Assembly: GCA_964467615.1 (NCBI GenBank)
Contig: CAYXRK010000002.1
Span: forward strand, 4,576 to 68,575
Length of the DNA stretch: 64,000 nucleotides
Direction: 5' to 3'
Source of the DNA: an uncultured Nitrospirales bacterium
Lineage (GTDB): Bacteria; Hydrogenedentota; Hydrogenedentia; Hydrogenedentales; GCA-2746185
Numbering within the stretch: position 1 is the stretch's first letter; every line of letters begins with the position of its first letter. The notes under the pieces are model-generated. The model saw nothing but the letters and a program-made list of their open reading frames with translations. It had not been told where the DNA came from and searched no databases. A program made the translations under genes and the position numbers. Positions 33,089 through 59,900 of this stretch are shown here, in pieces.

Positions 33089-33253
33089 ATGGTGGCCTTA
33101 AGCGCCTTCATCGGCATGACAATCTTGAGCGGGGTCGGCTGGTGGCTCGGAGCGCAAGCGGGCTTGGGCACCGCAATCGTTCTGAGCGGCGTCGGCGCGG
33201 GCGTTGGGTTCTACTACGGCCGTAAAATCGCCAAGGACTTACTCGACGGTTAG
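33089..33253 (+). CDS. Small (54 aa) Gly-rich two-TM membrane protein, below the ORF-track cut-off
   Basis: AAGAAGGA RBS; MVALSAFIGMTILSGVGWWLGAQAGLGTAIVLSGVGAGVGFYYGRKIAKDLLDG; fills the gap between rsgA and the next gene. Confidence 0.7.
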   Translation: MVALSAFIGMTILSGVGWWLGAQAGLGTAIVLSGVGAGVGFYYGRKIAKDLLDG

Positions 33254-33262
33254 CCCGCTGAA

Positions 33263-34234
33263 CTATATTTCGTCGCCCGGCTTCCATTCGTAAATGAGCG
33301 CCGGATTGGCGATGTACTTGAGCATGTAGTCACCGAAGGGGAACGCTTCACCGGCATCGTAGGCGCGGTGGTCCATCGTGCAGCAAATCGTCATCACCGA
33401 GCGGACGACGATCTGACCATCCACGACGCGCGGTCCCAGGTGCAGGTCGCCCAAACCGAACATCATCACTTCCGGCGGGGCAAGCACGGTGACGGTCTGG
33501 TGTCCTGGCACCACCATGCCGATGTTGGCGATGCTGCATGTCGCACCGAGGATTTCCGTCGCGTCGAGTTTGTCTTCGGGTTTGACGGTGGCGTATTCGG
33601 GTTCGGGCCGGTAGGGGTGGAAGAGGAGTTCGCGGAGGAGCAGGAATCCTGGCCAGAGCGCGCGCACGTCGAGTTGGCGGATGGACGGCATAATGTAGTG
33701 GATCGCGGCGCGGCGATACAGTTCCTCCGGATCGGAGCGGCGGGCGCGGCGGCTTAGATCGCGCAGTTCGGCTGCGACGGTCTCGAGGGTCTTGACATGC
33801 GGATTTCGGACAATAGGCCGCACCACGCCCTTTTTCGTGTGGACGGTCACGCCCATGTTGATGTCTTCGGCGTGATACAGCGTGCCGCGCGTGGTCACTG
33901 GACTCCAATCGAGAAACGCGTTCATACAAGGAACGTGGCTGACCGCGTGGGCGATGGCCTTGACGAAAAACGCTGAGAAATTCTTGTGAATCGCGCGCCG
34001 AAAGAGAATCTCATTGGTCATCTTCACGGCGTTGCGCGCGATTTCCTTGTCCTTGTCGCGCGTGTACTCGACGAGCGGAGTTACGTCGAGTTCGGAGGTC
34101 ATCGACGCGTGTGGGATTCTCTTGGCTGCAATCGACAGCATGTACGCCACGCCCTGGCGCAGCATGCTAAACGGGACCGCCTGCTTGACCTTGACGTTCT
34201 CGCGCAGGTATGCGACTTTGTGGTCTTGAAACAT
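33263..34234 (-). CDS. Stand-alone 2-oxoacid dehydrogenase E2-type acyltransferase catalytic domain (no lipoyl or PSBD domain)
   Basis: IPHA, ELDVT, DINMGVTVHTKKGVVRPIVRN, SIANIG, C-terminal TMDHRAYDAG (HxxxD[G]). Confidence 0.85.
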   Translation of the reverse strand: MFQDHKVAYLRENVKVKQAVPFSMLRQGVAYMLSIAAKRIPHASMTSELDVTPLVEYTRDKDKEIARNAVKMTNEILFRRAIHKNFSAFFVKAIAHAVSHVPCMNAFLDWSPVTTRGTLYHAEDINMGVTVHTKKGVVRPIVRNPHVKTLETVAAELRDLSRRARRSDPEELYRRAAIHYIMPSIRQLDVRALWPGFLLLRELLFHPYRPEPEYATVKPEDKLDATEILGATCSIANIGMVVPGHQTVTVLAPPEVMMFGLGDLHLGPRVVDGQIVVRSVMTICCTMDHRAYDAGEAFPFGDYMLKYIANPALIYEWKPGDEI

Positions 34235-34246
34235 TCGAGGCGAACG

Positions 34247-35644
34247 CTACGCGGTGGCGGCCGGGAAGGACTCGGCCGGCTCGGTGTGTTTCGGCGTAAC
34301 GTGCGCTAGCCGCTCACGGGCGATCATCTTCATGCCGTACTTCGGGCGCAAGCTGAGTAACGGTTCGAGGGCGACGCGATGTCCCGGTTCGTGTTCCAAT
34401 CGCCAGCGCTGCGCAATGATAGCGAGCGCCATCGTCCCCTCCATCCGGGCGAAATGCTCGCCGATACACCCGCGCGGTCCCGCGCCGAAGGGCAGGTAGG
34501 CGAATTTTGGCCGCGCCGCTTCTTGCTCCGGCGTAAACCGATCGGGATCGAAGCGCTCGGGATCGTCCCAATACTTCGGATTGCGATGCATGACGTACGG
34601 ACTGAACACGACGGCCGTCCCTTTATGCGCCGTGTACTCCCGTAGCGGATAGTCCTCTAGCGCTTCCCGCGCGAGGATATAGATCGGCGGATACATGCGA
34701 AGGGACTCCGCGAAAACTCGGCGCGTGTAGTCCAAATTCATCACGTCCAGGGCGCGTGGGGAATTACCCTTCAGCACATGATCGATCTCGTGATACATCC
34801 TGTCTGCCGCCTCGGGGTTCTGCGAGAGTAAGTACCATGTCCACGTGAGCGACAGAGCCGTGGTTTCGTGGCCCCCGACGAAAAGCGTGATGACTTCGTC
34901 GAGCACCTGCTGATCGGTCATGTACGCGCCTGTGTCCTCATTTTGGGCGGCCAGGATAGTCGAAAGGAGATCGCCTCGGTCGTGGCCGTCCGCGCGGCGC
35001 TCGTCGATCATGCGGCGAACGGTCTCGTCGAGCCTGCGTTTGGCCTTTCGGAACGCGATGTTGCTGGGCAGCGGCAACTTCTCAAGGAATTCAGCCATGG
35101 GGTTCGCGCTACGCTCGAACAGTTTCATCGCGACGGTCAGGCACTCGCCGAGTTCGAGCGCTTCCCCATCGACGTCGCTGTGGAACAACGTTTTCGTCGC
35201 GATCCCCAGGCTGAGCTTCGTCATCTCCTGATAGATGTCGTAGGTTTGATCGGCCCGCCAACTATCGCGGCAGCGGATCGTGTCATCGATCATCACGCGC
35301 GCGTAGGCTTCGATGCGGTCGCGGCGGAAGGAAGGCTGCATCATTTTTTGTTGATCGCGGTGGAATTCGCCCTCGCTCGTGATAAGCCCGTTGCCCAGCA
35401 GCCGTTTCATCAGGCGCAATGCGCGGCTCTTGATGAACTTGCGATGGTCCGTGACCGTGACATCTCTGATAAGGTCTGGGTCGTTGATGAGAATGAGCGG
35501 CCGGCCGGCCATGTTGATATACGCGATATCGCCGTACTCGCGCGTCGTGTTCATCAACAGCCCGATCAAGTCATTCTTGAACGCAAACACCTGGCCCAGT
35601 GGATGCCAGGACTTCGGCCCTGGAGGGTACGCGAGCGTACTCAT
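34247..35644 (-). CDS. Cytochrome P450
   Basis: GGHETT I-helix, ESLR (ExxR), PERF, FGAGPRGCIG heme motif; start reassigned to ATG 35644 (AGGAGG RBS, ATGA overlap). Confidence 0.97.
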   Translation of the reverse strand: MSTLAYPPGPKSWHPLGQVFAFKNDLIGLLMNTTREYGDIAYINMAGRPLILINDPDLIRDVTVTDHRKFIKSRALRLMKRLLGNGLITSEGEFHRDQQKMMQPSFRRDRIEAYARVMIDDTIRCRDSWRADQTYDIYQEMTKLSLGIATKTLFHSDVDGEALELGECLTVAMKLFERSANPMAEFLEKLPLPSNIAFRKAKRRLDETVRRMIDERRADGHDRGDLLSTILAAQNEDTGAYMTDQQVLDEVITLFVGGHETTALSLTWTWYLLSQNPEAADRMYHEIDHVLKGNSPRALDVMNLDYTRRVFAESLRMYPPIYILAREALEDYPLREYTAHKGTAVVFSPYVMHRNPKYWDDPERFDPDRFTPEQEAARPKFAYLPFGAGPRGCIGEHFARMEGTMALAIIAQRWRLEHEPGHRVALEPLLSLRPKYGMKMIARERLAHVTPKHTEPAESFPAATA

Positions 35645-37602
35645 GAAGCAATTCCTCCTGCTTGCGGCGTGTTTTCGGCAAGGCACGCGACCGCGGCCGG
35701 CCCCCCAAGTATCGCCCGGGCCACCGACGCCAAGCTCACTCCCGCCGTAGACACGGACTCCCCAATGCCCGGAATTTTCCATGTCGCGTATTCGCCGTCG
35801 CGCCAAGTCACGAAACGATAACGCGGGTCGTCGAGCGGATGTTCGAATGAAAACACGACCGAGGTAGGCGCACCCTCGAGGGTTTCGAGTACGCGTGCCT
35901 CAATCCCGTTCCAAGAAACCGCGTCGCCAGAACTCATCGGGGCGGTGTCAGCGCGCCGAAATATATGCGACCACGGCCGGCGCAAAAATCCATCTTCCTG
36001 CTGGAGCAACAGTTCGTTCGCTGATGTCCTCTGTACGATGACTGGCATACGCGCTGCGGAGAGCCACGCCCACGCAAAGTCCCCAGGCGCGCCCTGCGCG
36101 GCGCGCGCCAGCGGGAAACTCGCGCCCAGCAGATCAAGCGGCGTGTTCACTGCGACGACTAGTTCGGTATCGCGATTCGCAAACTGTGCGACGCTGTTGT
36201 TGCTGTTCTGAAACCCGCGATCCATCACGGCAATAGCGACTGACATCCCAACGAGAAACAGCGGCGCGATGATCGCGTGCGCCCCAAGCCACACGCCCGC
36301 AAGCACCCGCGCTCGGACCGGTGACTCGCGGCGCGCGCGCGCCCAACGATCAAGAAACAAGCCAACGACGCCGAGCGCGCCAAGACTCGCGAACATGAGG
36401 TTGCGATCCTGAGGAATCGTGGCGCACATCGGGAGCGCCGCCAACAACGAACCCGTCAACAGGAAGCGGGCCTCGCGCGACTGGCTAAGCAATGGCCGAA
36501 GCACCAACAACATCCAAATTGCGAACGCGGCGCCAATCGCCGAAAACAATGCTTGCCACACGCCCGGTAACGCGGCCCAAACAATCGAGTCGGGCGCGGC
36601 GAACAGCCCCACGAGCAACGCCGGATAGCGTCCCAGCGCCTCCTTGATGAAGTACAAGGGCTCCGCGAGCGGATCGATATACAGCCAAGAGCCCCACGTG
36701 CCGTGACCGGCGGCGATATAGATCGCGCGCCATACGGCCGTCGCCGCGAGATAGGGGGCGAGACTTATCGCAGCGCGGGCGACCCGCCCGATCGGCTTAC
36801 GCGACGCCGCGCTCTCGTCAATAAAAAAAGCGTAGGCGGCTAGATAGGCGAGCGCGCCGATTGCGGCTTCACCAAAAAACAATGACACGAGGAACAGCGC
36901 GAGGGCCAGCGCCCGCCACGCCACCGACTTACTGAATTCAACGCCCGTGCGGCACGATCTATCGTGGGCGAGCAATGCTCCGATTCCAAACAGCGCTGTG
37001 TAGAGCGCGTGCCGGTTCGCAATCCATCCCGCGGCGACACCGTGGCCGCCGTCTATTGCAAACAGGAGGGCGGCGATGACCGCTGCCCGGCCCGCGCCGA
37101 TAGTCCGCCGAAACCACACGGCAGCAAGCGCCGCGAGCGCGCCGTAGAGTAGCCAACTGTGAACGTGGAACGGGAACGCCTGTTCCCCGAATAGTTGGTA
37201 GTCGATCCATAGCGACAGCGACGTCAGCGGGCGCCACATGTCGACTCGCCAACCCTCGACGGCCCACCACGGGAGCACTCCGGACTTGAGAAGCGCCTGA
37301 TTGCCGCTGGCCTGGCCATCAGCGAAGGTGTACGTATTCAATAGTTTACTATTGAATCCTTGAGCATCGTTGGCCTTGAAGATAGAGAGGAAATACCAAT
37401 CGTCTTGCGCGAATCCGATGAACAAGGCCGGCGAAGTCAGGAGAAGCCCAACCACAAACGCGAACAACGCGGGACGGCGACTGATCGCACCGATGAACGC
37501 GGACACGCTGAGCGGCGACGGCACGGCCACTCCGGCCTCAATACCGTCTAGACCTGCACCGCGCGCGAAGCTTCGGCTGTTTTCCACGATGGATTTCGAC
37601 AT
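35641..37602 (-). CDS. Polytopic membrane protein with a TMTC/GT-C-like N-terminal region (no TPRs)
   Basis: QDDWY, WRPLTSLSLWIDYQLFG..FH motifs parallel to the 24408 protein; ~12 TM segments. Start uncertain (37602 vs 37674). Confidence 0.75.
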   Translation of the reverse strand: MSKSIVENSRSFARGAGLDGIEAGVAVPSPLSVSAFIGAISRRPALFAFVVGLLLTSPALFIGFAQDDWYFLSIFKANDAQGFNSKLLNTYTFADGQASGNQALLKSGVLPWWAVEGWRVDMWRPLTSLSLWIDYQLFGEQAFPFHVHSWLLYGALAALAAVWFRRTIGAGRAAVIAALLFAIDGGHGVAAGWIANRHALYTALFGIGALLAHDRSCRTGVEFSKSVAWRALALALFLVSLFFGEAAIGALAYLAAYAFFIDESAASRKPIGRVARAAISLAPYLAATAVWRAIYIAAGHGTWGSWLYIDPLAEPLYFIKEALGRYPALLVGLFAAPDSIVWAALPGVWQALFSAIGAAFAIWMLLVLRPLLSQSREARFLLTGSLLAALPMCATIPQDRNLMFASLGALGVVGLFLDRWARARRESPVRARVLAGVWLGAHAIIAPLFLVGMSVAIAVMDRGFQNSNNSVAQFANRDTELVVAVNTPLDLLGASFPLARAAQGAPGDFAWAWLSAARMPVIVQRTSANELLLQQEDGFLRRPWSHIFRRADTAPMSSGDAVSWNGIEARVLETLEGAPTSVVFSFEHPLDDPRYRFVTWRDGEYATWKIPGIGESVSTAGVSLASVARAILGGPAAVACLAENTPQAGGIAS

Positions 37603-37819
37603 GAGTACGTAGAGCGGGGAGGTCCCGTTTCCCGGCAATTGCGGGTCCGCGAACGAACATGGAAATGCGGACACTACACCCTCGGCGGCGGTGCTCCCGT
37701 CAACGCTGCCTCTCTGCGTAAGTCCAATGATTTCAATATGTTAGCAAAAGTGCAACACTCCGAAATTGGGCCGCACCTCGCGTACAACACCAGTCGGATC
37801 GAAAAGTGTTACGGCTTCG

Positions 37820-40102
37820 TTAGCTGTGTTCTTTGGATTTGAGAAGGGGCCGGATGCGCCACTCGGCGTCCGGGCCAAAACGATAATGCGAGTGGCCGTC
37901 TCTGCCGCTATGACCCGCGAAAGCACCACGATACAGGAAGTGAGTACCAGCCGTCCCAATCGCGACAGTCGCCACGAACATGATTGCCACAGCCACACAG
38001 GCACGACCGACTGGAAGGCCACGCGTTGGCGGGGGGTAGAGCGCATTGCGATCTTCAGGCCGCGCGCAAAACGCCAATAGCGCGGTCGCGATCGCGGCGT
38101 TGACGAAAATCACGCCCTCCGTAATGAGCCGGCCTTCACTGAAGCCTGTGATCGCGCGTTCGAAATTGAATATGACACACACCCACAAAAACGCGAGATA
38201 CAGCAACATGCCTTTGCCCAGATTCGTCGCCGGGACAATCGGTATCGGCTTAGAGATATGGCGGGCGAGCAGGACAATGATCACGCCGCTTACGATCCAA
38301 AACACCGTCCCGAACCAGGCCTCGACGCTCATCTCGATCGACTGGAACCAGAACATCTTCATCCGCTCAGGCACATCCTGGTGCTCGACCCAGGTCCGGA
38401 TCGCCTTGGACCAGTTGACGTAGACCACGAACGTGAGCACGAACGCGACGGAGAACACTTCCGTCCATCGGTTCGTTCGTGGTTCTGGGAAGTGGCGTTT
38501 CACATGCCGCGCGAGCAGGGCCATCGCGATCGCGACGGCGATTCCGTTGATGAAGCCGTAAGTCTGTTCGAGGAAACTGTGCCAATTCGCGCTTTGATAG
38601 TAGCGCCAGACTTCGGGATTGTTGATCCACGCGTGAAGTTGCTCGCCCCAACGCCCGACCGCCACGCCTTGAAGCCAATCGGGCGCGATCCAAGCTTCCG
38701 GAGAAACGCTTGGATTGCCCGGACGCAGCATGACAAGTTTGATAAACGCCGTGCCCGAGAACCCGATGCCGCCGATGCCGCCGCATATGAGCGAGGCATA
38801 CGCGACCGGCATGAGGTTATATCTCGCGCAGTACATCGACAGCGCTACCGCGACGCCTAGTATCCCCGCCCAATCGTCGCCGCGCGGCGGCGTCATCCGA
38901 ATGCCGAGCGCTACCGGCAAGAGCAAAAATCCCCCGAACCAACCCAGCGCCATGTACAAGAAAAGTTTCGAGTGATTGGCAAATTTGCCGAACAACGCAA
39001 AATACAGGGCGATTCCAGCGATTCCACCCAGCACCGGACCTATCCAGACAATTGTTCCCGGAAAATCGTGCAAGAAGCCCGGCCAATTTGTCGCCAGGTC
39101 GTCCCTAAACTTGGCGATGTCGCCGCCGTGCAGATTCTGGAAGTCGCTAAGTATGTAGTTCCTCTGTTGTTCCGTGAACGACGGATCGTTGATTCCAAGT
39201 TCCTTGGCGCGTTCGACCAATCCGACGTCGCCCGCGTAACGGGTAAGCGATTCGCCAACCTTGGCTTCCAGACCCGCGCGGCGCAAAAGAGACTGCACCA
39301 AACACCCTGTCCCCGCGCCAACTAGCGCCAGCCCGCACATACCGGCGAGCGGCGCGAGACAGAATTGAATCACGTATGCGACGACCATCACGCCACCGAT
39401 CGCCACGACCAAGTATCCGACGAGGCCACCACCTACATGAGCGAGAAGCAGGCCCGCCAGCACTAGGATCAGGCCCGCGATTTCAATCGGGGTCGCGCGG
39501 CCAACACGTCGCTGCCAAATGTCGTAAAGGCAAACACCTACCAGAGCGGTCAGCGCCTTCGTCCAATCCGAGTCGAACCAGTAGAGCGGGGTATCGTGGC
39601 GGTTCCAAGTCGCGTCCGCGACTGGCCGCAGGCTGTCGAACCAAGGTTCCAGACTGATCGTCCAAACCCACCAGGCCGAAAATATGAAGACGAGCGGCGG
39701 GAACAGCGCGGTGAGTTGCTGTCGCGTGAGTACTGCCGGAAGCGCGGTCCCTGCACCCCCCAGCGCCGCCCAGAGAAACCCGATGAGAAACAGCGCGGCA
39801 AAGCCATAAGGCAACGTGTTATGGGTGATATCCCCAGAGTGCGTATACGCGATGACCTGCATATACGAAATACTGCCGCCAAACCCCCAGCCCAGCGCCC
39901 CGAAAAACGCAAAGTACGCGACGCGCTCGCGCCAGTCCTCGCGCCCCGAAAGCAGGCAGACCGCGATGGCCGTCAGACAGCCGGGGATCATCGCGCCGTA
40001 TTCGTGACCGAAATTGCCGCGAATACCCCAACCGATCGACAGGCTCAACGCGCACAGAAGAATCGTCGTCGGGCGAAAACCGGGTTCCACTTTAGTCCTC
40101 AT
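37820..40102 (-). CDS. Large polytopic membrane protein of unknown function
   Basis: 760-aa ORF, many Gly-rich TM helices; GWGIRGNFGHEYGAM, GFGGSISY, PPRGDDWAG, NWHSFLEQTYGF motifs. Confidence 0.85.
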   Translation of the reverse strand: MRTKVEPGFRPTTILLCALSLSIGWGIRGNFGHEYGAMIPGCLTAIAVCLLSGREDWRERVAYFAFFGALGWGFGGSISYMQVIAYTHSGDITHNTLPYGFAALFLIGFLWAALGGAGTALPAVLTRQQLTALFPPLVFIFSAWWVWTISLEPWFDSLRPVADATWNRHDTPLYWFDSDWTKALTALVGVCLYDIWQRRVGRATPIEIAGLILVLAGLLLAHVGGGLVGYLVVAIGGVMVVAYVIQFCLAPLAGMCGLALVGAGTGCLVQSLLRRAGLEAKVGESLTRYAGDVGLVERAKELGINDPSFTEQQRNYILSDFQNLHGGDIAKFRDDLATNWPGFLHDFPGTIVWIGPVLGGIAGIALYFALFGKFANHSKLFLYMALGWFGGFLLLPVALGIRMTPPRGDDWAGILGVAVALSMYCARYNLMPVAYASLICGGIGGIGFSGTAFIKLVMLRPGNPSVSPEAWIAPDWLQGVAVGRWGEQLHAWINNPEVWRYYQSANWHSFLEQTYGFINGIAVAIAMALLARHVKRHFPEPRTNRWTEVFSVAFVLTFVVYVNWSKAIRTWVEHQDVPERMKMFWFQSIEMSVEAWFGTVFWIVSGVIIVLLARHISKPIPIVPATNLGKGMLLYLAFLWVCVIFNFERAITGFSEGRLITEGVIFVNAAIATALLAFCARPEDRNALYPPPTRGLPVGRACVAVAIMFVATVAIGTAGTHFLYRGAFAGHSGRDGHSHYRFGPDAEWRIRPLLKSKEHS

Positions 40103-44732: not shown

Positions 44733-44823
44733 TTTTCTCCCAGCGGCGGTGGATTGCCCGCGCACAGTTCGCTACGATAACTCGCTTGTATAGCTTTTCG
44801 TCCAACCGTGAGGCGCAGTTGCC

Positions 44824-46332
44824 GTGAAAAAACACACTGTCCGCGTTTACCCCTCCAAGAAAAATCTCGCGAAAGAGAACCAACTCGCGTGGAAGATCGC
44901 CGCGATGGCGACGGACAACGCGCCGATCGACGAGGCCTGCTGCGAGATGGTGATCAACCGTATCATCGACAACGCATCGGTGGCGCTCGCGGCGATCAAT
45001 CGCGAGCCTGTGGCAAACGCCCGGAGCCAGGCGCTCGCCCACCCGCGCAAGAAGGGCGCGACACTTTTCGGCGTGCATGCGGACGAGCGTTTCGACGCCG
45101 AGTGGGCGGCGTGGGCCAACGGGACCGCGGTACGCGAGTTGGATTTCCACGACACCTTCCTGGCAGCGGACTACTCGCATCCTGGAGACAACATTCCGCC
45201 GATTCTAGCGGTGGCCCAGCAAGTGGGGAAATCGGGCGCGGATCTTATTCGCGGCGCGCTCGTGGGTTACGAGACGCAGGTGAATTTGGTCAAGGCGATT
45301 TGTCTCCACAAACACAAGATCGATCACATCGCGCATCTCTGCCCCGCGCAAGCCGCCGGAATTGGCGCGCTGCTTGGGCTCGACACGGACACCGTGTATC
45401 AGGCGGTACAGCAGGCGGTGCATGTTTCCTTTACGACGCGCCAATCGCGCAAGGGAGAGATTTCGTCGTGGAAGGCCAATGCCCCCGCCCACGCCGGAAA
45501 GCTGGCGGTGGAGGCGGCGGATCGGACTATGCGGGGCGAAAAGGCGCCCTCGCCCATTTACGAGGGCGAGGACAGCGTTATCGCGTGGATGCTGGATGGT
45601 CCCGAGGCGGAGTATACGGTGCCGCTACCCGGACCGGGCGAACCAAAGCGGGCGATCTTGGAGACGTATACGAAAGAGCACTCGGCGGAATATCAGGCCC
45701 AGGCGCTGATCGATCTCGGCTTTCGGATGAAGACGAAAATCACAGACTTCGCCGGCATCGACAAAATCATATTGCACACCTCGCATCACACGCACTACGT
45801 GATTGGCACCGGCGCAAACGATCCGCAAAAGATGGATCCGAAGGCAAGCCGCGAGACGCTCGATCATTCGATCATGTATATCTTCGCGGTCGCGTTGCAG
45901 GACGGGCGCTGGCACCACGTGGACAGTTACGCACCCGAACGCGCCGGACGGCCGGACACCGTGGAACTATGGCGCAAGATCGAGACACGCGAGGACCCCG
46001 AGTGGACCGCGCGGTATCACGATACCGACCCGGCGCGAAAAGCCTTCGGCGCGCGCGTCGAGATTACATTCAAGAACGGCCAGAAGCTTGTGGACGAGAT
46101 GGCGGTCGCGAACGCACATTCGCTCGGCGCGAAGCCCTTCCAACGCGACGACTACATTCGAAAATTTCGCACGCTCACTTCCGACGTGATTTCCGAGGGC
46201 GAGTCCGAAAGATTTCTGGGTCTCGTGCAAAGTTTGCCTCATTTGAGCGCCGACGAGCTTGCGGGCTTGAACCCCGTCGCGCCCCCAGGAAACCTCAAGC
46301 GTTCGACGCGGGACACGCGGGGGATCTTTTAA
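44824..46332 (+). CDS. prpD: 2-methylcitrate dehydratase (MmgE/PrpD family)
   Basis: [50 protein letters not shown]. Confidence 0.92.
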
Positions 46333-46485
46333 CGCGGCGTCCCGGGCATTGACGCAGTCACTACGGCGGAATAAGCTAGGAGCGAACATGACGCCCTGAC
46401 ACCGATGCGCTTTCCCCCGCCCCCGATTCTTCTAACGCGCCGACGCCAAACGCCGGCCGATCTGTTACGCCAGGGCCCCTCGTGG

Positions 46486-47974: not shown

Positions 47975-50900
47975 CTAAACCCTGCGTTGCCGCCGCCGGA
48001 GCAGGCACAATGCCGCGGCCGCAGCCAACGCCAGCGCAATATCGCCGGGATGCGAAGATCCACCCGCGACGCCAGAGGCCGCACAGCCTGTTGTCGTGCT
48101 CAACGCCGTGCCTGTGACGGTGATGTTCGCGCCGCCGCCGCCGGTCAGAGTCAATACACGGTTGAAATCTCCGGCGGCACCCGGCGCGAAACGAACCACG
48201 ACTTCGTGCGCAGGACCGCCCGGAGCAATGCTATAGCTGCCGCCCGATACGATGCTGAACGGCGCCGAAACACCGGCGACGCCTTCGAGCAGCGCGTCAC
48301 CTACGTTCGACACGCTAAGGGTCAATTCGCCGTCGCTGCCCACGGGGACCTCGCCGAAGGCAAGCCCGTTCGGCGTCGCTTGCAGTACCGCCCCCAACGG
48401 ACGGTTGAACGGCGCCACTAACGACAAGGCGACCAAGTCAGCCTCCACCACACTGGCAGATACGCCCGCGTTGGCGACCTTGTCGGTGGTCCATTCCCCG
48501 GCTTCGCCGGCAATCTGCACACCGCTCGAATCGGTCGTAACATTGGACGGATGCGTAAACACTTGCTCAGTGCCGCCAGCCGACACGCCAACGCCGGAAA
48601 TCATGTAATGGACGGGGTTGGCCTCGACTCGCGCGTCGTCTACTTCCGCAAACGTCGCGCCGCCGTCATTGCTTATCAACACGGTGACCTCGGCATACTG
48701 ACCGTCGACGATCAGCCCGCTTGACGGCTGCTCGCCTAGCAGCGCAGCCTGATCGACGCCTAACAACGTATCGAGATCATCCGCCACCAACAAGATGAGG
48801 ATCGCGTCTTCGCCGTCTTCGACGAGGGCCCGCGGCGCTTCCACCGTCACGACAACTCCTTCAATCGTCGGACTTTCGACCGACATCGTGACCGATCCCT
48901 CATCCGTTTGTTTCTTATTCCTATTAAACTTGGTCGCACCCACGGCCTTGCCCTTGCCGGTGCTCGTTTCCGTGACGGTCGTGGTCCAAGTATCGCCCGT
49001 GGTCGGTAGCGCCGCAAACGGATCGTCCGGAATACCGTTCAAGTCGGTATCCGTAGTGGCGGCCGCAACGGTGACCGTGAACGCGATCTGCGCTTGGAAC
49101 GATAGCGCCGGAGCGCTCAGACTTTCCGCGGTGGCCACGACCACGTGGGTGCCTGCGCCCGCGATAGCGAGAAGATCACTAATGGTGACCGCGTAAGGAG
49201 GAGCATCGGCCATACCGACGCCTGCGCCGTCAAGCGTATACGAAACCAGAAGCGTGTCCTCCGGGCAATCGACTTCCGACAGGATGGTAAGCGTCTGCGC
49301 CGGGGCGTTCGCGTCGATGAAAATGGTCGCGCCGTCCGGCGGTCCCGTTATCGCCACAGAGCCAAGTACGCAACCGCTGGACTGCAATGTCACCGCCCCA
49401 TCGGTACTAGTCGAAACGGAATTGCGGTTACCCGCGGCGTCCTCTGCCGCGTTGGCGCGAACGGCGACGCCAATCACACCCTCGGTTTCCGCCTGGACGA
49501 CTGAGATTGTGTACGTGTCCCCGGAGCCGGAAATCGAAAGGACGACTCCTGTCACGGAGCCTCCGACGACGACGTCCGACGCGTCGAATCCTGTAACAGG
49601 TTCGCTAAACGAGACCCGGAAATTGATCGGCAGGGCGACCGCCGGATCCTGTTGGTCGGCCGCTTGATTTACTACTACGGAGGGCGCCTCGTTATCGACG
49701 ACGACAACTGCGCTCGGTGCCGACGCGGGTGCGCCATTACCGGCGGTGTCCGTCGCCGTGCCTGCCAGCACGCTCACGCCCAGCGTGCCACTTCCGCTAA
49801 TGTTCGTCAGCGTCACCGTGCGCTCGGTCAGGCCGCTGCCAGAGACAAGCACCGTAGCATCTGCAGAGCCCGTCTTGTCCACCACAACATCGCCGGTGCC
49901 TAGCGTGATCACGGTGGCGTCCGTGTATGTCACTGTGTACGTGACAGGAAGATTTGTTGTGGCTGGCAGCGACGGCCCGCTAATCGAAACCTGTGGCGCG
50001 CTGGCGTCCACGATGAACGTCGCGCTCGTGGCCCCAGGTGCTTGTTCGCCGACGAGATCGGTGGCCGTTCCCTCAGCGATCGTAATGCCCAGAGAACCTT
50101 GACCGCTAATATTGGAAACCGTCACGGTACGAGTGTTCTTGCCCGAACCACTCACCGCGATTTCGCCCGACGCCGTGCCGGTGGCGTTAAGCGTAATGTC
50201 GGCTGGCGACAGCGTAATCGTCTCCGCCCCGACGTAGCTGACGGTAAACGATACCGGCCCCGTCTGCGTGACCCCCGTCGATGGAGGAGACACCTGCATG
50301 CTCAACGGTGAGTTGTCGACGACAAAGGTCGCGCTCGCCGTCGCGGCAACCGCCGGGTTTCCAACAAGGTCGGTGGCCGTGTTCGCGGCTATCGCAACCG
50401 CAAGCGTCCCATCGCCGATAATGTTGCTAATCGTAACGATCCGCTGCATCGAGCCGGAACCGGACACGCCAATTTCGCCGAATGCGTCGCCCGTCGCTAT
50501 CAACTGTATGTCGCTTGGCGAAAGTGTGATGCTGTTCGCCTCAATGTAGGAGACAACAAACTCGACAGGGCCGTTTTCGGTCCCCGATAGACTTGGCGGA
50601 CCGATACCGAACGATGGCGGCGTGTTGTCAATCGTGTACTCGGCGCTCGACAGATTACTCACTTCCAATTGGTTTCCCACCACATCAAACACGTTGGTCC
50701 CGATCGTAATGCCCAGCGTCCCGTCGGCATCCTCGTCTAACGGCGTGATCGCTACCGTGTACGTATCGCCCGACCCGGTGAGAGAAATCGGATCAATCGC
50801 GTTGGAAAGTGTGCCTGTCACCGTAATGTCGGCCGTGGTAAACGAGTCGACTATCGCTTCGGTAAATTTCACACCGTACGAAACCGATTCCGCGTTCGTC

Positions 50901-53900
50901 CGCGCGGAATTGTTGGACGTAATACCGCTGACCAGCGGCGCCGCGTTGTCTACACGCAATATAGCCTCATGGTTCGTCGCTTCCGCCGACAGGTTCCCCA
51001 ACGCGTCCCGCGCGGTGCCCGCGGCGATGAACAACGTAATCGGCCCATTGCCAGTTAGGTTGGTCAGCACAATGGTCCGTTCCTGCGGACCGGTCTCCTC
51101 GATTCGAAAATCAGCCGTGGGAACGTCCGGATTGTTGTCGAACGGCGGAAACGCTTGAACGCCCTTCGCATCACCGGAATCGGTCGTATCCGTGGTATTC
51201 GAAACCGGATCGATCGGGCGGCCCTGGAAATCGTCGATGGACTCAGCGACGATCCGAACCTCTTCCTCGCTGAGCGTAATCTCGTCGCTCCCAGGGTACT
51301 GGATGACAAAACGTACTTCCGTATCGAATTTTGCTATCGATGGATCGGGTGACGCGATGATTACTTCCGGAGCTTCTCGGTCGATGTCAAAGTGCTCTCC
51401 CTCCGTAAAGTCGCCGTTGTTTGCGCCGGGACCGCCGAGCGGGTTCCCGACAGAGTCCACGATTGAATCGTCGTCGACCACCGTCAGGAGGAGCGTCCCG
51501 TCGCCTGCGCCTGCGTCGACCGTCACATCGTAGACCGCGCCGCTTCCGCTGACCATAGTCACTACGGAGGAAGAAACCAATTTCCCATCGTCGGACTCGA
51601 CGGCGAAGTCAGCAAAGGGCGGTCCGATATCCACGCCAGAAACCGATTCGGTGAAGGTCACGCGGAAGTGGACTTCCGTAGCGGCAGTAGGCGTCAGATC
51701 CAGAATGGCGATTGATTCCACCAACGGGTCTAGCGTGTCGACCTCGCGATCAAACACTTCAGACGCGCTGTTCTGATTTCCGGCCAAGTCGACAACCGAA
51801 TTGGCGGCGACCTGTGCGGACACCGCACCCTGCCCGGCAGGATTCAGGAAGAAGGAAAAACTAGATGGTGTGAGCGGGATCAACGAACTCGCTGTCGCGT
51901 TCGTTGTGATGATATCGGCCAGCGTGAAGTCGGCGACGGCTTCATTGAATGTCACCGCCACAGGAATGGTAGACGCGCCGGTGAGCTGAGGTTCGGTCGA
52001 CGAGAGAACCACCGTTGGACCAGTCACGTCGTAAGCACGGCTGAATTGCGGGGCCGCCAAGTTCCCGTTTCCGATCGTGTCCAAGGCCGCGTCGGCGGGA
52101 ACATCGACCGTCACGGGCCCTTCGGCGGAAGGCGCCAAATCGAAAGTGTATTCCATCGCGCTGACAGGCGTGAAATTCGATGCCGTGCCGTTCGATATGA
52201 ACATATCGGCCTGCGTAAATCCGGTAACGGCTTCGTTGAACGTGACGGTAATATCGAAAGTCGAATCGCTCGTCGGGTCAGCTACACTCGAAGAAATGAC
52301 GACTTCGGGCGAAGCGCCCACAAAGGTGCGCAGGAACTGATCCGCGGCCCCATTCGCATTGCCCGCGGTATCGTTCGCGGCACCCGCGGGCAAATCGATC
52401 GTCATAACGGTGGGCTCGCTTAGCGGAACGAGTTCCAATGTGTAGACGTCGCCTGATTGCACCGCGAAATTCGCGATCGTCGCGCCACTAATCACAAGGT
52501 CGCTCTGATCGAAGCCCGTGACGTTTTCGCTGAACGTCACGGTCACATCGGTCGTCGGATTTCCCGTCGGTTCGGGCTGTGTGCTCGATATAAGGACATC
52601 CGGCGCCACGGAGTCGTAAACGCGTGTAAATACGGCCGAATCGACATTGCCATTGTTCGCGGCATCTAACGAACGGTTCGCGGCTATGACCGCGGAGACC
52701 GTTCCTTCGCCCTGAGGAACGAGATCGAACGTGTAAACGGCGCCCGATCCCGCAAAGTTAGAAACTGTGGCGTTCGAAGACGTAATGTCGATCGCCGTAA
52801 AGCCGGTCACGGATTCAGAATAGGTCACCGTAACAGGGACGCTGGCCGCGTTCGTGGGATCGGATACGCCGGAACTCAGCGTGACGTTCGGGGCGACGCT
52901 GTCAAAGGTCCTGCTCAACGCTGCCGCCGCAGTACTCGCGTTGCCTGCGTTGTCGAGCGCGGCCCCGCCCGCTACATCCGCGGAAACCACACCTTGGCCT
53001 GAAGGCACGAGGCTGAACGTATAGACCGCGCCGGACCCCTCAAACCCGGTCACAGCCGCGTTCGTCGGCGCGACGTCAGTCGACAGGAAGTCAGTCACGG
53101 GCTCGCTAAACGTCGCCGTGACCGTGATCGGGGAAATATTCGTCGGGCTGCCCAGCGCGGATGAGAGCACGAGTGAAGGCGCCTGACTGTCGTACGTGCG
53201 GCTAAACGTCGCGGCAGCCGTATTGGCGTTCGCCGCCGCATCGATCGCCACGCCGCCCGTAATGTCCGCCGTAATGTCTCCGTCGGAGGTTGGCGTCAAA
53301 TCAAACGTGTACGTCGAACCGGCGCCCGCGAAGTTAGACACGGTCGCGTTACCTGCTGTGATCTCGCCCGCCGTGAAACCGGTCACGCTCTCGCTGAACG
53401 ACACGGCCACCTCAATCGGGGCCGTATTCGTGATGGCCGGGGCCGAACTCGTCATCGTTACTTCGGGGCCGCCGCTATCGAATGTAACTTCGATGCGATT
53501 GGACAGCGTATTACCATTGCCCGCGGAGTCCTGGGCCGATGCGGCTGAAGCCTCGACCGTTACGACACCGTCGCCCGAAGGCGTTGCGTTAAACGTGTAA
53601 ACCGTCGCGCTCTGGGGGACGAAGTTTCCGATTGCGGCATTTGTAACGGCGATTTCGCCCGCGGTCAATCCGGTGACGGCCTCGCTAAAGGTGGCGGTGA
53701 CCGCGATGGGCTGAGTATTCGTCGGATCGGAAGAGCTGGTGCTCAATACCACGGTGGGGGGTGAAAGATCCACGGTACGGATAAGCGCCGCGCCCGCCGC
53801 CGCGTTCAAGTTGCCCGCGATGTCCTGCGCTACACTGCCCGCCACGTTGACCGTTATCGCTACGTTGTTGCCGGAAGGCGTTACGCCGAAGGAAAACTCC

Positions 53901-56900
53901 GAACTACTTTCGCTCGTAAACCCAGTCAATGTTCCGTTGGTTACGGACACATCACTCGACGTGAAACCCGTCACGGGTTCCGTAAACATCACGGTTACGG
54001 GAACGGGATTCGCGCTCGTCGGGTCCCCGGCCGGGGAAGTGATCGTCACGCCCGGATTGGTGCTATCGAAAGTACGGCTCAACGTTCCCGACTCGGAGTT
54101 GCCATTGGCCGCGCTGTCCTGCGCCGCGTTTGGTCCGACCTCGGCGGTAACTGGGCCCTGTCCAACCGGCGCCAGATTGACACTGTAACTTGCGCCTGAC
54201 CCGCTGAATCCGCTCTTTGTCGCGTTCGTGACGATAATATCCCCAATTGCGAATCCGGTAACGGGTTCGCTGAACGTAATCGTCAACGGTATCGGATTCG
54301 TGTTAGCCGGCGAATTCGCCGATACCGCCGAAGTCAACGCTACTGTAGGCGCAGTGTCGTCGAACGTGCGCGAAAGCTGGGCCGCGGCCGTATTCGTGTT
54401 ACCCGCCGCGTCTACCGCTCGCCCTCCAGCCACGTTCACAGTCACCTCGCCATCGGTCGCGGGCACTACGTGGAACGAATAGTTCGCGCCGGATCCCGCG
54501 AAATTGCTCAGCGATCCATTGCCAATTACGACATCGCTCGATACGAATTCGGTGACGATTTGGCTAAACGTTACGGTCACCGGAATGGGTGAGGTCTTGG
54601 TCGGATTGCCGGCCGTGGACGCGAGCACCGTCCCTGGGCGTGTACCGTCGAATGTGTTCGCCGCGGTGTTGGACGCAGTGTTTCCGTTTCCGGCGTCATC
54701 CGTCACTACGCCGCCCGCGAGAGAGACGCTTACGACACCGTCGGCCGCGGGCGTGATTTGCATGCTCCATTTGTCCGGCGTCAACTGAGTAAACCCGAAG
54801 ACGCTTCCATTGCCGACCGTCACGTCACCTTGCGCGAACCCGCTGACGCTTTCGCTGTATTGAATATCGAACGTCAAGGGATTCTCGTTCGTTGGGTTTG
54901 AATCGATTGGGGTCACTGTGACCGACGGAGCACTTCCGTCAAAAACGCGGCTGAATTGGCTGCTCGCGGCGTTCCCGTTGGCCGCGCTGTCCGTCGCGGC
55001 GCCGGCGGAAATGACTGCCGTTGCCGCGCCGTCCGCGGTGGGCAACAAGTTATAGGAGTAGTTCGCGCCGCTGCCGCTGAATCCTCCCACGGTCGCGTTC
55101 GACGTTTGGATGTCGCCGCTCGTGAAACCCGTGACGGACTCGCTGAAGGTGACCGTCACCGCGATCGAGGTAGAGCTTGTCGGATCGCCTTCTGCTGAAG
55201 TCATCGTTACGGTCGGGGCCTGACTATCAAACGCCCGGCTCAACTGACTAGCGGCCGAATTACCGTTTGCGGCGCTGTCCAGCGCAACACCTCCCGCTAC
55301 GTTGACCGTGACCGTACCAACCGCCACGGTGGGAGTGGCGCTGAAGGTATATACGGTCGAGCTCTGCGTTTGGAAGTTCGAAAAAGTCGCGTTACCCGCC
55401 GTGATGTCGCCGATCGCGAAACCTGTCACTGCTTCGTTGAACGTCGCCGTTACCGGGATCGGAGAATTCTTGGTCGGATTAGAAGCGGTCGTCGTCAACG
55501 TAATGGTCGGCAGCGTGTTGTCGAACGTCCGGCTGAATTGCGCCGCCGCCACGTTCCCGTTCGTCGCGGTGTCCACCACAACACCCGCCGCGATATTTGC
55601 GGTGACCGCTCCCGGGGCAGTCGGCGCGATGTTGAAAGTAAAGCTGCTCCCGGTACCGCCAGCCGGAGACAGTGCCGACGCCGTCCCGTTTCCAACCACG
55701 ATATCGACCAACGCGAAGCCGGAAATGCTTTCGCTGAACGTGACCGTGACGGCGATCGGATTGCTGTTCGTCGGGTTTGCGGCCGCGGAAGACATCGAGA
55801 CCGTCGGAGCGGTGGCGTCAAATGTCCGGCTGAGCGCCGTCGCGGCGTTGTTCGTGTTGCCCGCCGAATCCTGCGCAACCCCGCCGGAAATGTTCACGGT
55901 AACTAACCCGTCGGCCGACGGAATAACGTTGAACACATACTGCGTGCCGCTGTTCGGCGTAAAATTCGTGACGTTGCCATTAGTGACGCTAATGTCCCCC
56001 GCCACAAATCCAGTCACCGACTCGGTGAAATTGGCGGTCACGGAGATTGGCGAGGTCTTTGTCGGGTTGGACGAGGCCGAGGTCATCGAAACGCTCGGCT
56101 TCGTGCCGTCGAATACGCGCGAGAATTGCGCCGCTGCAGTGTTGTTGTTTCCGGCCGCGTCTTGTGCTACGCCGCCTGCCACATCAACGGTAACTGTTCC
56201 CGCAGCCAAGTTCGTCAATTGAATTGAGTAGCTCGCGCCCGAACCGCTCAAACTGCCGACCGTCGCGCCCGACGCAACAATCTCGCCCAGTGTAAGTCCG
56301 GTCACTGCTTCGCTAAAAGTCAACAATACGGTAAGCGGACTGGAATTCGTCGGATTGGACGCGACAGACGACAGCGTCGCGGCAGGGCCCGTGCCGTCGG
56401 ATGTAATCGCGAATTGGCTGGCGGCCTGGTTTCCGTTCGCGGCCAAATCCTGCGCTACGCCGCCCGGGATGTCGACGGTCACTGTCCCGTCGACCGTAGG
56501 CGATACCGTAAACGTGTACGTCGACGCGTTGGTCACGGCGAAGGTGCCCACGGTCCCGTTCGAGGCCGTGATATCGCCTTGAGCGAATCCTGTCACCGCT
56601 TCACTGAACGTCGCCGTGAACGGTATCGGGGCCGTGCTCGTCGGGCTTGTTGCGCTCGATGTGATCGCGACCGTCGGCGCGGCGCTGTCGAACACAATGC
56701 TGAACTGTGACGCGGCGGTGTTGTTGTTCCCAGCAGTGTCCTGCGCGATGGATCCCGCGATGTTCGCCGTTACGGTCCCTTGGCCAGTCGGCGTTAAATT
56801 GAAACTGTACGATGCGCCCGATCCGCTGAATCCCCCAGCGGTGGCGTTGCCTGCCGCGATATCGCCGACGGCAAACCCTGTCACCGATTCGTTGAACGTA

Positions 56901-59900
56901 ACCGTCACCGGTATCGGGGTGGTTTTCGTCGGTCCGGGAGATGCAGTTGATGCCATAGACACTGTCGGCGCGGCCGTATCGAACGTGCGGCTGAACTGTG
57001 GAGCGGGATCGTTCGGATTCGTCCCGGCGTCCTGCGCGATGCCACCGGCGATATTCGCCGTAACGGCGCCCTGGCCCGTCGGCGTCAAATTGAAGCTGTA
57101 CGACGCGCCCGATCCGCTAAACCCGCCGACAGTCCCGTTACTCGGCGTGATGTCCCCGGACGTAAATCCTGTAACCGTCTCGCTGAACGTGACCGTGACT
57201 GGAATGGGCGTCGTATTGGTGACTACGGCCGTCGCGGACGTCATCACGACCGTCGGGTTCGTGCTATTGAAATCAATCGAGAACTGCGTCGCCGCCGTGT
57301 TGTTGTTGCCCGCGCCGTCCTGCGCCACGCTCGCCGCGATGCTCGCCGTAACGGTCCCGTTCGCGGTCGTCGGCACCAGACCAAACGAATACGAAGCGCC
57401 GGAGCCGGCGAACCCCGAAATCGTGGCGTTGGTTGCCGTCACATCAGCTTGCACGAACCCCGTAACGCTTTCTGTAAACGTGACCGTCACCGGAATCGGA
57501 GAAACGTTCGTCGGCCCCGGAGAAGCGGTCGACGCCATCGACACGCCAGGCTGCGTGGTGTCAAAGGTCCTGTTAATCACGTTGCCCGCGGTATTGTTGT
57601 TACCCGCCGAATCCTGCGCCGCGCTGCCGTTAACTGTTACCGTCACTGCGCCTTGTCCGCTCGGCACCACGTTGACGGAGTAGCTCGCTCCAGATCCCGC
57701 GAATCCGGATTTCGTAGCATTGGTTACAACAACATCTCCGATCACAAATCCCGTTACCGATTCGCTGAACGTTATCGTCAAGGGAATCGGCGATGCGTTT
57801 GTCGGGTTGGCCGCGCTCGTCGTTAGTGCGACCGTCGGTTGCGTCGAATCAAATGTCCGGCTGAATATCGTGGACGCGTTGTTCGTGTTACCGGATGCAT
57901 CCGTCGCCGATCCCGCCGGGATACTCGCCGTGACGGCCCCCTGTCCTATCGGAGTCAAATCGAAGGTATACGTAGACGCGCTCCCGGCAAAATTGCCCTT
58001 CGTCGCGTTGGTGACTTCCACGGCGCTAAGCCCAAATCCGCTAACGCTCTCGCCAAATTCCACCGTAACCGGTATCGGTGTAGTGTTCGTCACCGTCGGC
58101 GCCGCTGAACTCAATACCGGAGTCGGCGCGCTGCCGTCGAACGTGATTGAAAATTGCGTAGCCGCAGTGTTCGTGTTGAGTGCCACGTCTTGCGCCAACC
58201 CCGCACCAACGTTGACCGTCACAAGCCCCTCGGCCGTGGGCGTTACGGTGACCGAATACGATGCGCCGGATCCCGCAAATCCCGTTTTTGTACCATTTGT
58301 AACTGTCACGTCGGAATTCGCAAATCCCGAGACCGACTCACTAAACGTGAACGTAATAGGAACCGGGCTTGTGCTCGTCGGGCTGGTAAGCGAGGAAGAA
58401 ATCGCAACGCTCGGCTGCACATTGTCGAACGTTCGGCTAAATTGCACCGCCGCCGTATTCGTGTTCCCCGCGCCGTCCTGGGCGAGACCCGCCCCGATGC
58501 TCGCCGTGACCAGTCCCTGGCCCGACGGCGTCAGATTAAACGAATAGCTCGCGCCGCTTCCGGCAAACCCGCCCAACACGGCGTTCGTTACAACAACGTC
58601 GCCGCTCGTAAAACCCGTTACCGATTCGGTAAACGCCACGCTCACCGAAATCGGCGTCGCATTCGCCGGATCCGTTGCCGCAGACGACATACTGACGCCG
58701 GGTTGCACGCTATCGAACGTAACGCTGAATTGCGTCGACGCGCTGTTATTGTTGCTTGCTGTATCTAGCGCGGTCGCCCCCGCGACGTTCACCGTTACCA
58801 CACCCTGGGCCGTCGGTGTCACCGTCAGTGAATACGACGCGCCCGATCCAGTGAATCCGCTCTTCGTTCCATTTGTTACCGCTACGTCTCCCACGACAAA
58901 TTCTGTCACCGACTCGCTGAACGTCACCGATATCGGAATCGATCCGTTCATCGTCGGACTCGCTTGCGTCGACGAAATACTTGCCGTCGGCGCGACTGAA
59001 TCGAAGATCCGCGCAAAAGCGGACGACACCGTGTTCGTGTTCCCCGCGCTGTCGGCCGCGCCATTCGCCACGACGGTCGCCGAAACGCTTCCCTGTCCCG
59101 TAGGCGTAAGACTGAATGTGTAACTCGCGCCGGATCCGGTCAATGCGCCGGCAGTCCCACCCGTCGTCGAGACGTCCACCAGCGCAAACCCGGTCACCGC
59201 CTCGCTGAACGTAACCGTTACCGGAACGGGCGATGCGTTCGCGGGATTACCGGCGGCGCTACTCAGGCTGACCGTCGGTTTGACGTTGTCGAACGTGATC
59301 GAAAACAACAACGACTGCGCGCTGCTGTTGCCCGTCAGATCCGTTGCCGCCGCGGCCGCCACCTGCGCGCTCACCGCACCCTGTCCGCTTGGAATCAAGC
59401 TAAAGGTGTATACGGCGTCCCCGTCCAGACCTGTAAAATTGTTCACTGCGGCGTTTACCGGATCGATGTCCGCAGCCGTAAACCCGTTCACGGGCTCGCT
59501 CAAGGTCGCCGTCATCGGAATGGGAGAGGTGCTCGTCGGACCGGGAGAAGCGGAAGAGGTCAACGTCAGGGTGGGCGACGAGTTGTCAAAGGTCCGGGAA
59601 AACTGCGCTGCTGCCGCATTGCCGTTGTTCCCGCCGTCCAACGCGGTCGAGCCGGCAACGTCCACCGTCACTAGTCCCGGAGCGGTCGGCGTAATGTTCA
59701 CCGAATAACTCGCACCGGACCCCGCGAACCCGCTCTTCGAACCGTTGACGACCGCGATATCGGCGTTGACAAATCCGGTAACCGGCTCAGTAAAGTCGAT
59801 GCTCACTGCGAATGGCGTAGCGCTCGTCGGATTCGGTTCGGCCGAACTCGTCGTGAGCCCCGGCGCGACGCTATCGAACGTTCGGCTGAACTGCGGCGCG

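Follow-up and report, generated by a model that had tools for sequence, protein, structure and literature searches.

What might a membrane protein, a cytochrome P450, and a soluble acyltransferase do together when their genes are packed side by side in the DNA of an uncultured bacterium? The genes in question lie in a stretch of 64,000 nucleotides (the window) from a groundwater Candidatus Hydrogenedentota metagenome-assembled genome (MAG). They are three tightly packed, co-directional genes on the minus strand, in the order membrane protein (MEM653, 653 aa, 37602..35641), P450 (465 aa, 35644..34247), and acyltransferase (AT323, 323 aa, 34234..33263). A first-pass annotation of this DNA had taken the trio for a candidate lipid-tailoring operon. 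The analysis described here suggests that the trio may be one translationally coupled Hydrogenedentota module for the tailoring of an envelope lipid or lipoamino acid of fatty-acyl origin, a tentative reading to which we assign a probability of about 0.4.

The TGA stop codon of the membrane gene (35643..35641) and the ATG start codon of the P450 gene (35644..35642) share an ATGA overlap (35641..35644, minus strand), and an AGGAGG lies 8 nt 5' of the P450 ATG. The overlap is predicted to couple translation of the two genes. The P450 gene ends with TAG, and a 12-nt spacer (34235..34246, minus strand) separates it from the acyltransferase ATG at 34234. All of this was read directly from the sequence, and the coordinates, overlap, and spacing in the first-pass annotation are exact. 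The same 4-nt overlap and the same 12-nt gap are present in L039, a locus probably from the same genus. The genes themselves are open reading frame (ORF) calls, with domain matches to PF00067 for the P450 and PF00198 for the acyltransferase. MEM653 is 653 aa long when read from its ATG; a GTG in the same frame at 37674, with GAGG ahead of it, could serve as the start instead and would yield 677 aa, and the called start of this gene varies among homologues.

The arrangement recurs in relatives. All four P450 orthologues with at least 67% identity adjoin an AT323 homologue (L039, L040, L128, and L129), in at least three genomic contexts. The next tier of P450s is at most 54% identical, and the one member checked (L130) is unlinked to AT323. 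L039 carries the full trio at 83–94% identity with the same flanks as the window. L040, with unrelated flanks, carries the membrane gene (44% identity), the P450 gene (70%), and the acyltransferase gene (71%), followed by genes for a fatty acyl-AMP ligase (FAAL), an acyl carrier protein (ACP), and a one-module nonribosomal peptide synthetase (NRPS) with condensation, adenylation, thiolation, and thioesterase domains (C-A-T-TE). In L128 the order is membrane gene, P450, acyltransferase, FAAL, and then a polyketide synthase (PKS) gene cut at the contig end; in L129 it is P450 (cut at the contig start), acyltransferase, and FAAL. By the criterion of the first-pass annotation itself, the proposal would fail if the three genes were never linked elsewhere, and a search for conserved co-localisation had been advised; linkage was found on these four further contigs, three with the full trio and one with P450 and acyltransferase. 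Chance adjacency of the three genes was rejected, because the same order is present in L039, L040, and L128, and partly in L129, on independent contigs with different flanks.

The membrane and acyltransferase genes also occur as a pair without the P450 gene, with a 17-nt overlap or a 10-nt gap, in L002, L042, L043/44, and L132/133. An HMG-CoA reductase gene lies directly upstream of the pair, in the same direction, in L042 and L132/133, and a NAD_binding_4 acyl-thioester reductase gene follows it in L002 and L132. In L045/46 an AT–FAAL–PKS–NRPS-TE order is kept without the membrane or P450 gene. In a neighbor-joining tree, built without bootstrap, all acyltransferases linked to the membrane protein, the P450, or FAAL form one clade, and one MAG has both a copy linked to the membrane gene (L002) and a second, unlinked paralogue (L005). 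Judging from these gene orders, the ancestral unit is the pair of membrane protein and acyltransferase, which defines one Hydrogenedentota clade and between whose genes the P450 gene would have been inserted in one subclade. The trio is a modular, lineage-specific arrangement and not a universal unit. The earlier description of the trio as a unit thus stands insofar as the unit is genuine, conserved, and tightly coupled, but not as a general rule, as the P450 belongs to one subclade only.

The genes downstream of the trio in its relatives bear on the substrate. In most members of the P450-bearing subclade, FAAL–ACP/PKS–NRPS-TE genes directly follow the trio, and FAAL orthologues, 58–78% identical, lie 3' of the acyltransferase gene in four lineages. 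Because the trio, or the acyltransferase by itself, is immediately upstream of such genes in the nearest relatives outside the genus, the substrate could be a FAAL-primed molecule of the lipoamino-acid or lipopeptide type. The first-pass annotation had favored a generic membrane lipid or an imported hydrophobic compound, and the FAAL–NRPS genes of the relatives point away from that. Its remark that no PKS or NRPS is nearby is correct for the window but misleading as a guide, since the nearest relatives outside the genus carry FAAL–ACP/PKS–NRPS-TE genes downstream. The specificity code of the A domain in L040 is DLTKVGHVG; we take this code to resemble that for Asp, which would suggest an N-acyl-aspartate-like lipoamino acid and serves as a lead only. 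As a separate observation, compact FAAL–(ACP-KS-AT-ACP)–NRPS(C-A-T-TE) or FAAL–ACP–NRPS-TE clusters lie beside the acyltransferase gene in L045, L046, and L001 (5137..12341) and in L040 (11008..17407).

AT323 is a catalytic domain of the E2 type, the acyltransferase component of 2-oxoacid dehydrogenase complexes, standing on its own. It matches PF00198 in two stretches (E 5.9e-39, 134 bits) over the catalytic domain only, and Pfam finds neither a lipoyl (biotin_lipoyl) nor an E3_binding domain in it. The N-terminus, MFQD, opens directly into the catalytic domain, where all 28 aligned family members also start. A helical insert of about 55 aa (residues ~166–220) interrupts the E2 domain, and the length of about 323 aa is fixed across phyla. 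The predicted model (pLDDT 86.5) retrieved E2 cores as 50 of its top 50 Foldseek matches. No transmembrane (TM) segment is predicted, consistent with a soluble protein. In the DHRxxDG motif, D288, H289, R290, D293, and G295 are invariant among the 28 sequences, and with the His-Asp couple (H289, D293) intact AT323 is catalytically plausible. The earlier identification of a lipoyl-less E2-fold acyltransferase is borne out by these data. Scores against all NCBIfam E2 models are far below the cut-offs (82 bits versus 722).

The P450 has all the hallmarks of its superfamily. It matches PF00067 over residues 7–424 (E 3.7e-84, 283.6 bits against a cut-off of 22.8), and the heme-Cys (FGAGPRGCIG), ExxR (ESLR), PERF, and I-helix (GGHETT) motifs are all intact. 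It has no predicted TM segment and is taken as soluble. Its closest solved structure is CYP170A1 (3dbg, E 1e-65, 226 bits), followed by CYP97A3, CYP102, and CYP46A1, all of which act on lipophilic substrates. Its NCBIfam relatives are albaflavenone monooxygenase and pentalenene oxygenase, and no equivalog cut-off is reached (289 bits versus 700). Unnamed relatives at 50–54% identity number in the thousands, in Acidobacteriota and KSB1.

MEM653 has no sequence match in Pfam, NCBIfam, or the PDB sequences. Its 24 homologues likewise give no meaningful Pfam match at E<=1, and a profile built from these 24 sequences retrieves no significant PDB chain. The AlphaFold model (pLDDT 86.4, pTM 0.85) has about 13 TM helices and a beta-rich C-terminal domain (residues ~480–620); topology was taken from the model helices, as Kyte-Doolittle prediction is too crude for this protein. 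When the model was compared with the PDB by Foldseek, all of the top 17 matches were glycosyltransferases of the C fold (GT-C), among them AftA, AglB, STT3, ArnT, PglB, DPY19, and Pmt4 (E 1.7e-5 to 1e-2, probability 1.00, TM-scores 0.30–0.43). The earlier label of a GT-C-like membrane protein thus agrees with the predicted fold, with no sequence match, and we regard MEM653 as probably GT-C-like at the level of fold only. In GT-C enzymes, the catalytic acid closely follows TM1, in the first extracytoplasmic loop. In MEM653, D66 and D67 (in QDDWYF) lie 5–6 residues past TM1 (helix 44–61), and D67 is at least 90% conserved among the 24 homologues; by position rather than by superposition, these residues may correspond to the Asp that is catalytic in ArnT or PglB. 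Further invariant residues in the alignment of homologues are W112, W113, R124, D134, E245, R379, and R400.

Both proteins of the pair belong to wider families. The MEM653 family, for which there is no Pfam model, is very large: a search of 1.84 billion representatives (clusters at 50% identity) gave at least 3,542 of them at E<=1e-30 and, at E<=1e-10, 10,046. Its members mostly lack both partners. A fusion of CrtC-lipocalin and polyprenyl synthase adjoins the family in 11 of 80 metagenomic loci (L048-L127), mostly directly upstream on the same strand. It provides an indirect hint that MEM653 may transfer a sugar from a polyprenyl-phosphate donor. A PlsC-like acyltransferase adjoins the family in a few further loci. 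Members of the AT323 family occur in five phyla or more, namely Hydrogenedentota, Thermodesulfobacteriota, Nitrospirota, Acidobacteriota, and Planctomycetota. A NAD_binding_4 reductase (cluster c1) lies beside it in 10 of 38 species-representative loci, and GT1, sulfotransferase, and KAS genes do so in Thermodesulfobacteriota loci and in MAGs labeled "delta proteobacterium". Neighbors of the NAD_binding_4 type (fatty acyl or thioester reductase) were seen in L016, L017, L019, L028, L032, L034, L035, L037, L038, L002, and L132. These neighborhoods hint that the AT323 family as a whole may have an ester-lipid (wax-ester-like) role. By annotation, the recurrent neighbors of both wider families are lipid-related.

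How the three proteins could act on one molecule can be outlined as follows, with both the substrate and the order of the steps remaining conjectural. The lipid scaffold, in relatives, would be built by the FAAL–ACP/PKS–NRPS-TE enzymes. The soluble P450 would hydroxylate a hydrophobic chain in the cytoplasm, and the soluble E2-fold enzyme would then esterify the lipid hydroxyl, with an acyl-CoA or an acyl carrier as the donor. Once the lipid has reached the outer leaflet, the GT-C-fold MEM653 would add a sugar from a polyprenyl-phosphate donor via the Asp66/Asp67 loop. A bolder version of this proposal, which we consider unlikely, is that MEM653 is the first member with an assignable function in a large GT-C-fold family that lacks annotation, and that in Hydrogenedentota this family was recruited to glycosylate a lipoamino acid that is made by FAAL and NRPS and is first hydroxylated by the P450 and O-acylated by the E2-fold enzyme.

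Several observations weigh against a shared tailoring pathway. The membrane separates the active sites, as the P450 and AT323 are soluble and the conserved Asp of MEM653 is extracytoplasmic; cytoplasmic and periplasmic steps on one molecule therefore require a flipping step. Pfam scans, which covered 40 ORFs of the window, revealed no polyprenyl-phosphate GT2 or flippase, and a tblastn search of the window for FAAL, ACP, PKS, and NRPS found none of them. As the scaffold genes are absent from the window, they would have to be elsewhere in the genome, or else the module acts on an ordinary membrane lipid. The assignment of MEM653 to GT-C relies on TM-scores that are moderate and on a single conserved Asp, and its sequence matches no GT-C family. 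In AT323, Ala236 occupies the position of the canonical catalytic Ser/Thr and is at least 90% conserved in the family (in the HMMER alignment, TLSNIG of E2b corresponds to SIANIG of AT323, at the position before N-x-G); this Ser/Thr assists catalysis in canonical E2 enzymes. Outside the clade, the partners part company. None of the 80 metagenomic loci of the MEM653 family has the AT323-type acyltransferase or the P450 gene. Among the 38 species-representative acyltransferase loci, 37 lack both the membrane protein and the P450; the P450 occurs in none of them and the membrane protein only in L002. The trio was found through near relatives, not via these 38 genomes. Because of these counts, the functions of the two families are not intrinsically tied. 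No RNA run contains the window sequence, which occurs in DNA metagenomes only.

The same observations can be arranged in other ways. One of them, which we consider doubtful, is that the substrate is an isoprenoid lipid (a polyprenol, a carotenoid-like molecule, or another terpenoid) that the P450 hydroxylates, that the GT-C-fold protein glycosylates or uses as a carrier, and whose hydroxyl or sugar the acyltransferase esterifies, as in carotenoid glycoside esters. The best characterised relatives of the P450 (albaflavenone monooxygenase, pentalenene oxygenase, CYP170A1, and CYP97A3) are terpenoid oxygenases, HMG-CoA reductase precedes the pair in L042 and L132/133, and the CrtC-lipocalin and polyprenyl synthase fusion recurs beside the wider MEM653 family. 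However, the HMG-CoA reductase adjacency is confined to one sub-lineage, and a polyprenyl synthase neighbor would be no less expected if polyprenyl phosphate served only to carry the sugar. The window has no terpene synthase, phytoene synthase or desaturase, or polyprenyl synthase gene by the Pfam scans, and the partners in the P450-bearing subclade are FAAL, PKS, and NRPS genes, with no isoprenoid genes. It is also conceivable, if unlikely, that the genes are co-expressed without sharing a molecule: the GT-C-fold protein would glycosylate a periplasmic protein or glycan, in the manner of PglB, PMT, and ArnT-type enzymes, and the P450 and acyltransferase would act on a separate cytoplasmic metabolite, or MEM653 would be no glycosyltransferase but an exporter or scaffold for the acylated product. 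The opposite locations of the active sites are readily explained in this way, as is the fact that the wider MEM653 family, for all its 3,542 or more clusters at E<=1e-30, almost always lacks AT or P450, and L045/46 retain AT–FAAL–PKS–NRPS without MEM or P450. Harder to explain are the 17-nt overlap or 10-nt gap between the MEM and AT genes in at least four lineages with different flanks, and the insertion of the P450 gene exactly between them with the coupling preserved. The MEM-linked acyltransferases, moreover, form a single specialised clade, and one MAG has an unlinked paralogue as well (L002, L005).

The remaining alternatives concern the acyltransferase. AT323 could acetylate the hydroxyl installed by the P450 as a leaving group, so that elimination yields an alkene and the acyl group is not retained, as with Agg4/Agg5. 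The only enzymes of the stand-alone E2-like type with a biochemical characterisation act in this way (PMC5819245, citing Kanchanabanca 2013 and Wu 2014), and with relatives beside PKS–NRPS-TE genes a tetramate- or tetronate-like ring is conceivable. We nevertheless give this scheme little chance: neither an Agg5-type alpha/beta-hydrolase nor an FkbH-like glyceryl-ACP synthase nor a FabH-like gene is present at the trio or pair loci, and AT323, set against Agg4 by description, is longer (323 versus ~280 aa) with a 55-aa insert. That AT323 is instead a true E2 core, belonging to a 2-oxoacid or acetoin dehydrogenase complex whose lipoyl domain is supplied in trans, and that its neighbors are incidental, is barely conceivable. 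The PF00198 domain, the DHRxxDG motif, and the E2 fold would all fit. However, AT323 lacks the lipoyl and E3-binding domains and scores far below the NCBIfam E2 cut-offs, it has Ala for the catalytic Ser/Thr, a family-specific insert, and a length that is fixed across phyla, and E1 and E3 genes are absent both from the window and from the loci with Pfam annotation (L039-L046, L128, L129, and L132). A role as a genuine dehydrogenase-complex E2 was rejected for want of a lipoyl domain, E1/E3, and the catalytic Ser. Tailoring of a fatty-acyl-derived lipid or lipoamino acid by all three proteins remains our preferred account of the trio.

The borders of the unit can be placed with the help of the adjacent genes. 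Upstream of the membrane gene is an intergenic stretch (37603..37819, minus strand; 145–217 nt, depending on the start codon used) that is likely the promoter region of the three-gene unit. A consensus scan of its minus strand gave no sigma-70-like site, the consensus being uninformative for this phylum, and scans of sigma-70 promoters and terminators gave counts at or below chance and are uninformative here. Further upstream, MEM760 (37820..40102, minus strand), a co-directional 760-aa polytopic membrane protein of unassigned family, has no Pfam match and a weak LptF-like NCBIfam match. Of the loci compared, only L039, which is nearly identical, has it 5' of the trio; it was not found next to the unit in L040, L128, L042, L043, or L132. 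Its membership is doubtful for this reason, and it was rejected as a fourth member. The downstream end is marked by a convergent ORF (33089..33253, plus strand) for a Gly-rich small membrane protein of 54 aa, which is 93% conserved in L039 and has a weak MyrrCad-domain match; the housekeeping gene rsgA follows.

Other genes of the window are housekeeping genes or unrelated to the trio, and include those for a class II aminoacyl-tRNA synthetase, a diaminopropionate ammonia-lyase, a methyltransferase, ABC transporters, and TPR proteins, and a PrpD-like gene. The Pfam scans found no FAAL gene in the window and, as the first-pass annotation had stated for the surroundings of the trio, no E1/E3, PKS/NRPS, or terpene cyclase gene. 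It had also excluded a ferredoxin, and this part needs qualification: a Cys-motif scan found no convincing ferredoxin in the window, but gave one match to the loosest (2Fe-2S-type) pattern (6215..6325, minus strand), in a 64-codon stretch inside a BcrAD/BadFG gene, which was provisionally taken for chance. That gene (3424..7287, plus strand) encodes a 1,287-aa fusion of a BcrAD/BadFG-type ATPase with DUF2229, is CoA-enzyme activase-like, and is unrelated to the trio. An Rfam scan of the window returned no RNA families. A single ORF of at least 5,341 codons (47975..64000, minus strand) runs off the end of the window; the C-terminal 1,500 aa contain bacterial Big_12 Ig-like repeats, which makes a very large surface or adhesin-like protein the probable product. 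On the plus strand, a pair of ORFs of about 500 codons each (44808..46352 and 44824..46332) overlap in different frames. The frame from 44824 appears to encode a genuine MmgE/PrpD-like protein, and the 44808 frame, which is Arg-rich with a GC3 of 0.44 versus ~0.75 elsewhere, is probably a spurious shadow ORF.

To our knowledge, the envelope lipids of Hydrogenedentota are essentially undescribed. If the proposed module is real, it would point to a new class of lipid or lipoamino acid in these envelopes, would offer a first clue to the function of a widespread unannotated membrane-protein family, which would become a candidate for a new GT-C family, and would tie a family of stand-alone E2-fold acyltransferases to lipid metabolism, extending the small set of non-complex E2-like enzymes beyond tetronate biosynthesis. 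Should the GT-C and lipoamino-acid version hold as well, the trio would represent an envelope glycolipid pathway of a new type, with a GT-C enzyme in the role of a natural-product tailoring enzyme. If the module is not real, the trio is merely an uncharacterised accessory operon of an uncultured organism. The modular relatives form a graded series (membrane and acyltransferase genes by themselves, then joined by the P450 gene, then with FAAL–NRPS genes added), and the trio is best seen as a testable lead in an uncultured phylum, not as a categorically new system.

Among known systems, MEM653 is comparable to the GT-C enzymes ArnT, AftA/EmbB, PglB/AglB/STT3, PMT, and DPY19. It has in common with them the predicted fold, about 13 TM helices, a C-terminal extracytoplasmic domain, and a near-invariant acidic residue in the first extracytoplasmic loop, and polyprenyl synthase genes lie beside its wider family. 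Unlike them, it has no Pfam, NCBIfam, or PDB family match, its TM-scores are 0.30–0.43, and its genetic partners are a P450, an E2-like acyltransferase, and FAAL–NRPS genes. GT-C systems normally need a polyprenyl-phosphate GT2 and a flippase, neither of which is nearby here. In three-component systems of the GtrA/GtrB/GtrC type, the GT-C-fold enzyme is reported to be the final periplasmic transferase (PMC11127046); in contrast, the window and the trio and pair loci have no GT2 or GtrA-like flippase.

Free-standing E2 catalytic domains without a lipoyl domain are known from biosynthetic clusters as Agg4, QmnD3, AbyA4 (AbmA4), and ChlD3, and in this respect AT323 resembles them (PMC5819245). 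Agg4/QmnD3-type enzymes of tetronate pathways O-acetylate an alcohol, and Agg4-type enzymes are acyl-CoA-dependent O-acyltransferases that act on the hydroxyl of a PKS-derived molecule (PMC5819245). The novelty that the first-pass annotation implied for a lipoyl-less E2 is overstated for this reason. The cluster setting is similar, in that AT323 relatives are contiguous with FAAL, PKS, and NRPS genes. The differences are several: compared by description only, AT323 has 323 aa and a 55-aa helical insert against ~280 aa for Agg4; neither the window nor the related loci have the Agg5-type alpha/beta-hydrolase or the FkbH/ACP/FabH tetronate cassette; and AT323, which comes from Hydrogenedentota and other Gram-negative phyla and not from actinomycetes, is coupled to a GT-C-fold membrane protein. 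The canonical E2 enzymes of the pyruvate, 2-oxoglutarate, and branched-chain 2-oxoacid dehydrogenase complexes have the same catalytic fold and the His/Asp of DHRxxDG, but AT323 differs from them in lacking lipoyl and E3-binding domains, E1/E3 neighbors, and the catalytic Ser/Thr, and in its 55-aa insert.

A further counterpart is provided by FAAL-primed NRPS/PKS clusters for lipopeptides and lipoamino acids that include tailoring P450s and acyltransferases. The acyltransferase, accompanied or not by the membrane protein and the P450, is contiguous with FAAL–ACP/PKS–NRPS(C-A-T-TE) genes in L040, L128, L129, and L045, and the P450 of the trio falls in a CYP102/CYP170/CYP97-like group with lipophilic substrates. 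The window differs from these clusters in having three tailoring genes only, and a GT-C-fold partner would be unusual compared with the soluble GT1 or GT2 enzymes. Literature searches on the trio, on PF00198 in gene clusters, and on Hydrogenedentes P450s turned up no described system, in agreement with the first-pass annotation, which knew of no cluster with these three genes. All three enzymes fall in known superfamilies, and acyltransferases of the stand-alone E2-like type already have precedents; what appears to be undescribed is the coupling, conserved among relatives, between a GT-C-fold protein and an E2-fold acyltransferase, the insertion of a P450 gene between them, and the attachment of this set to FAAL–NRPS/PKS genes.

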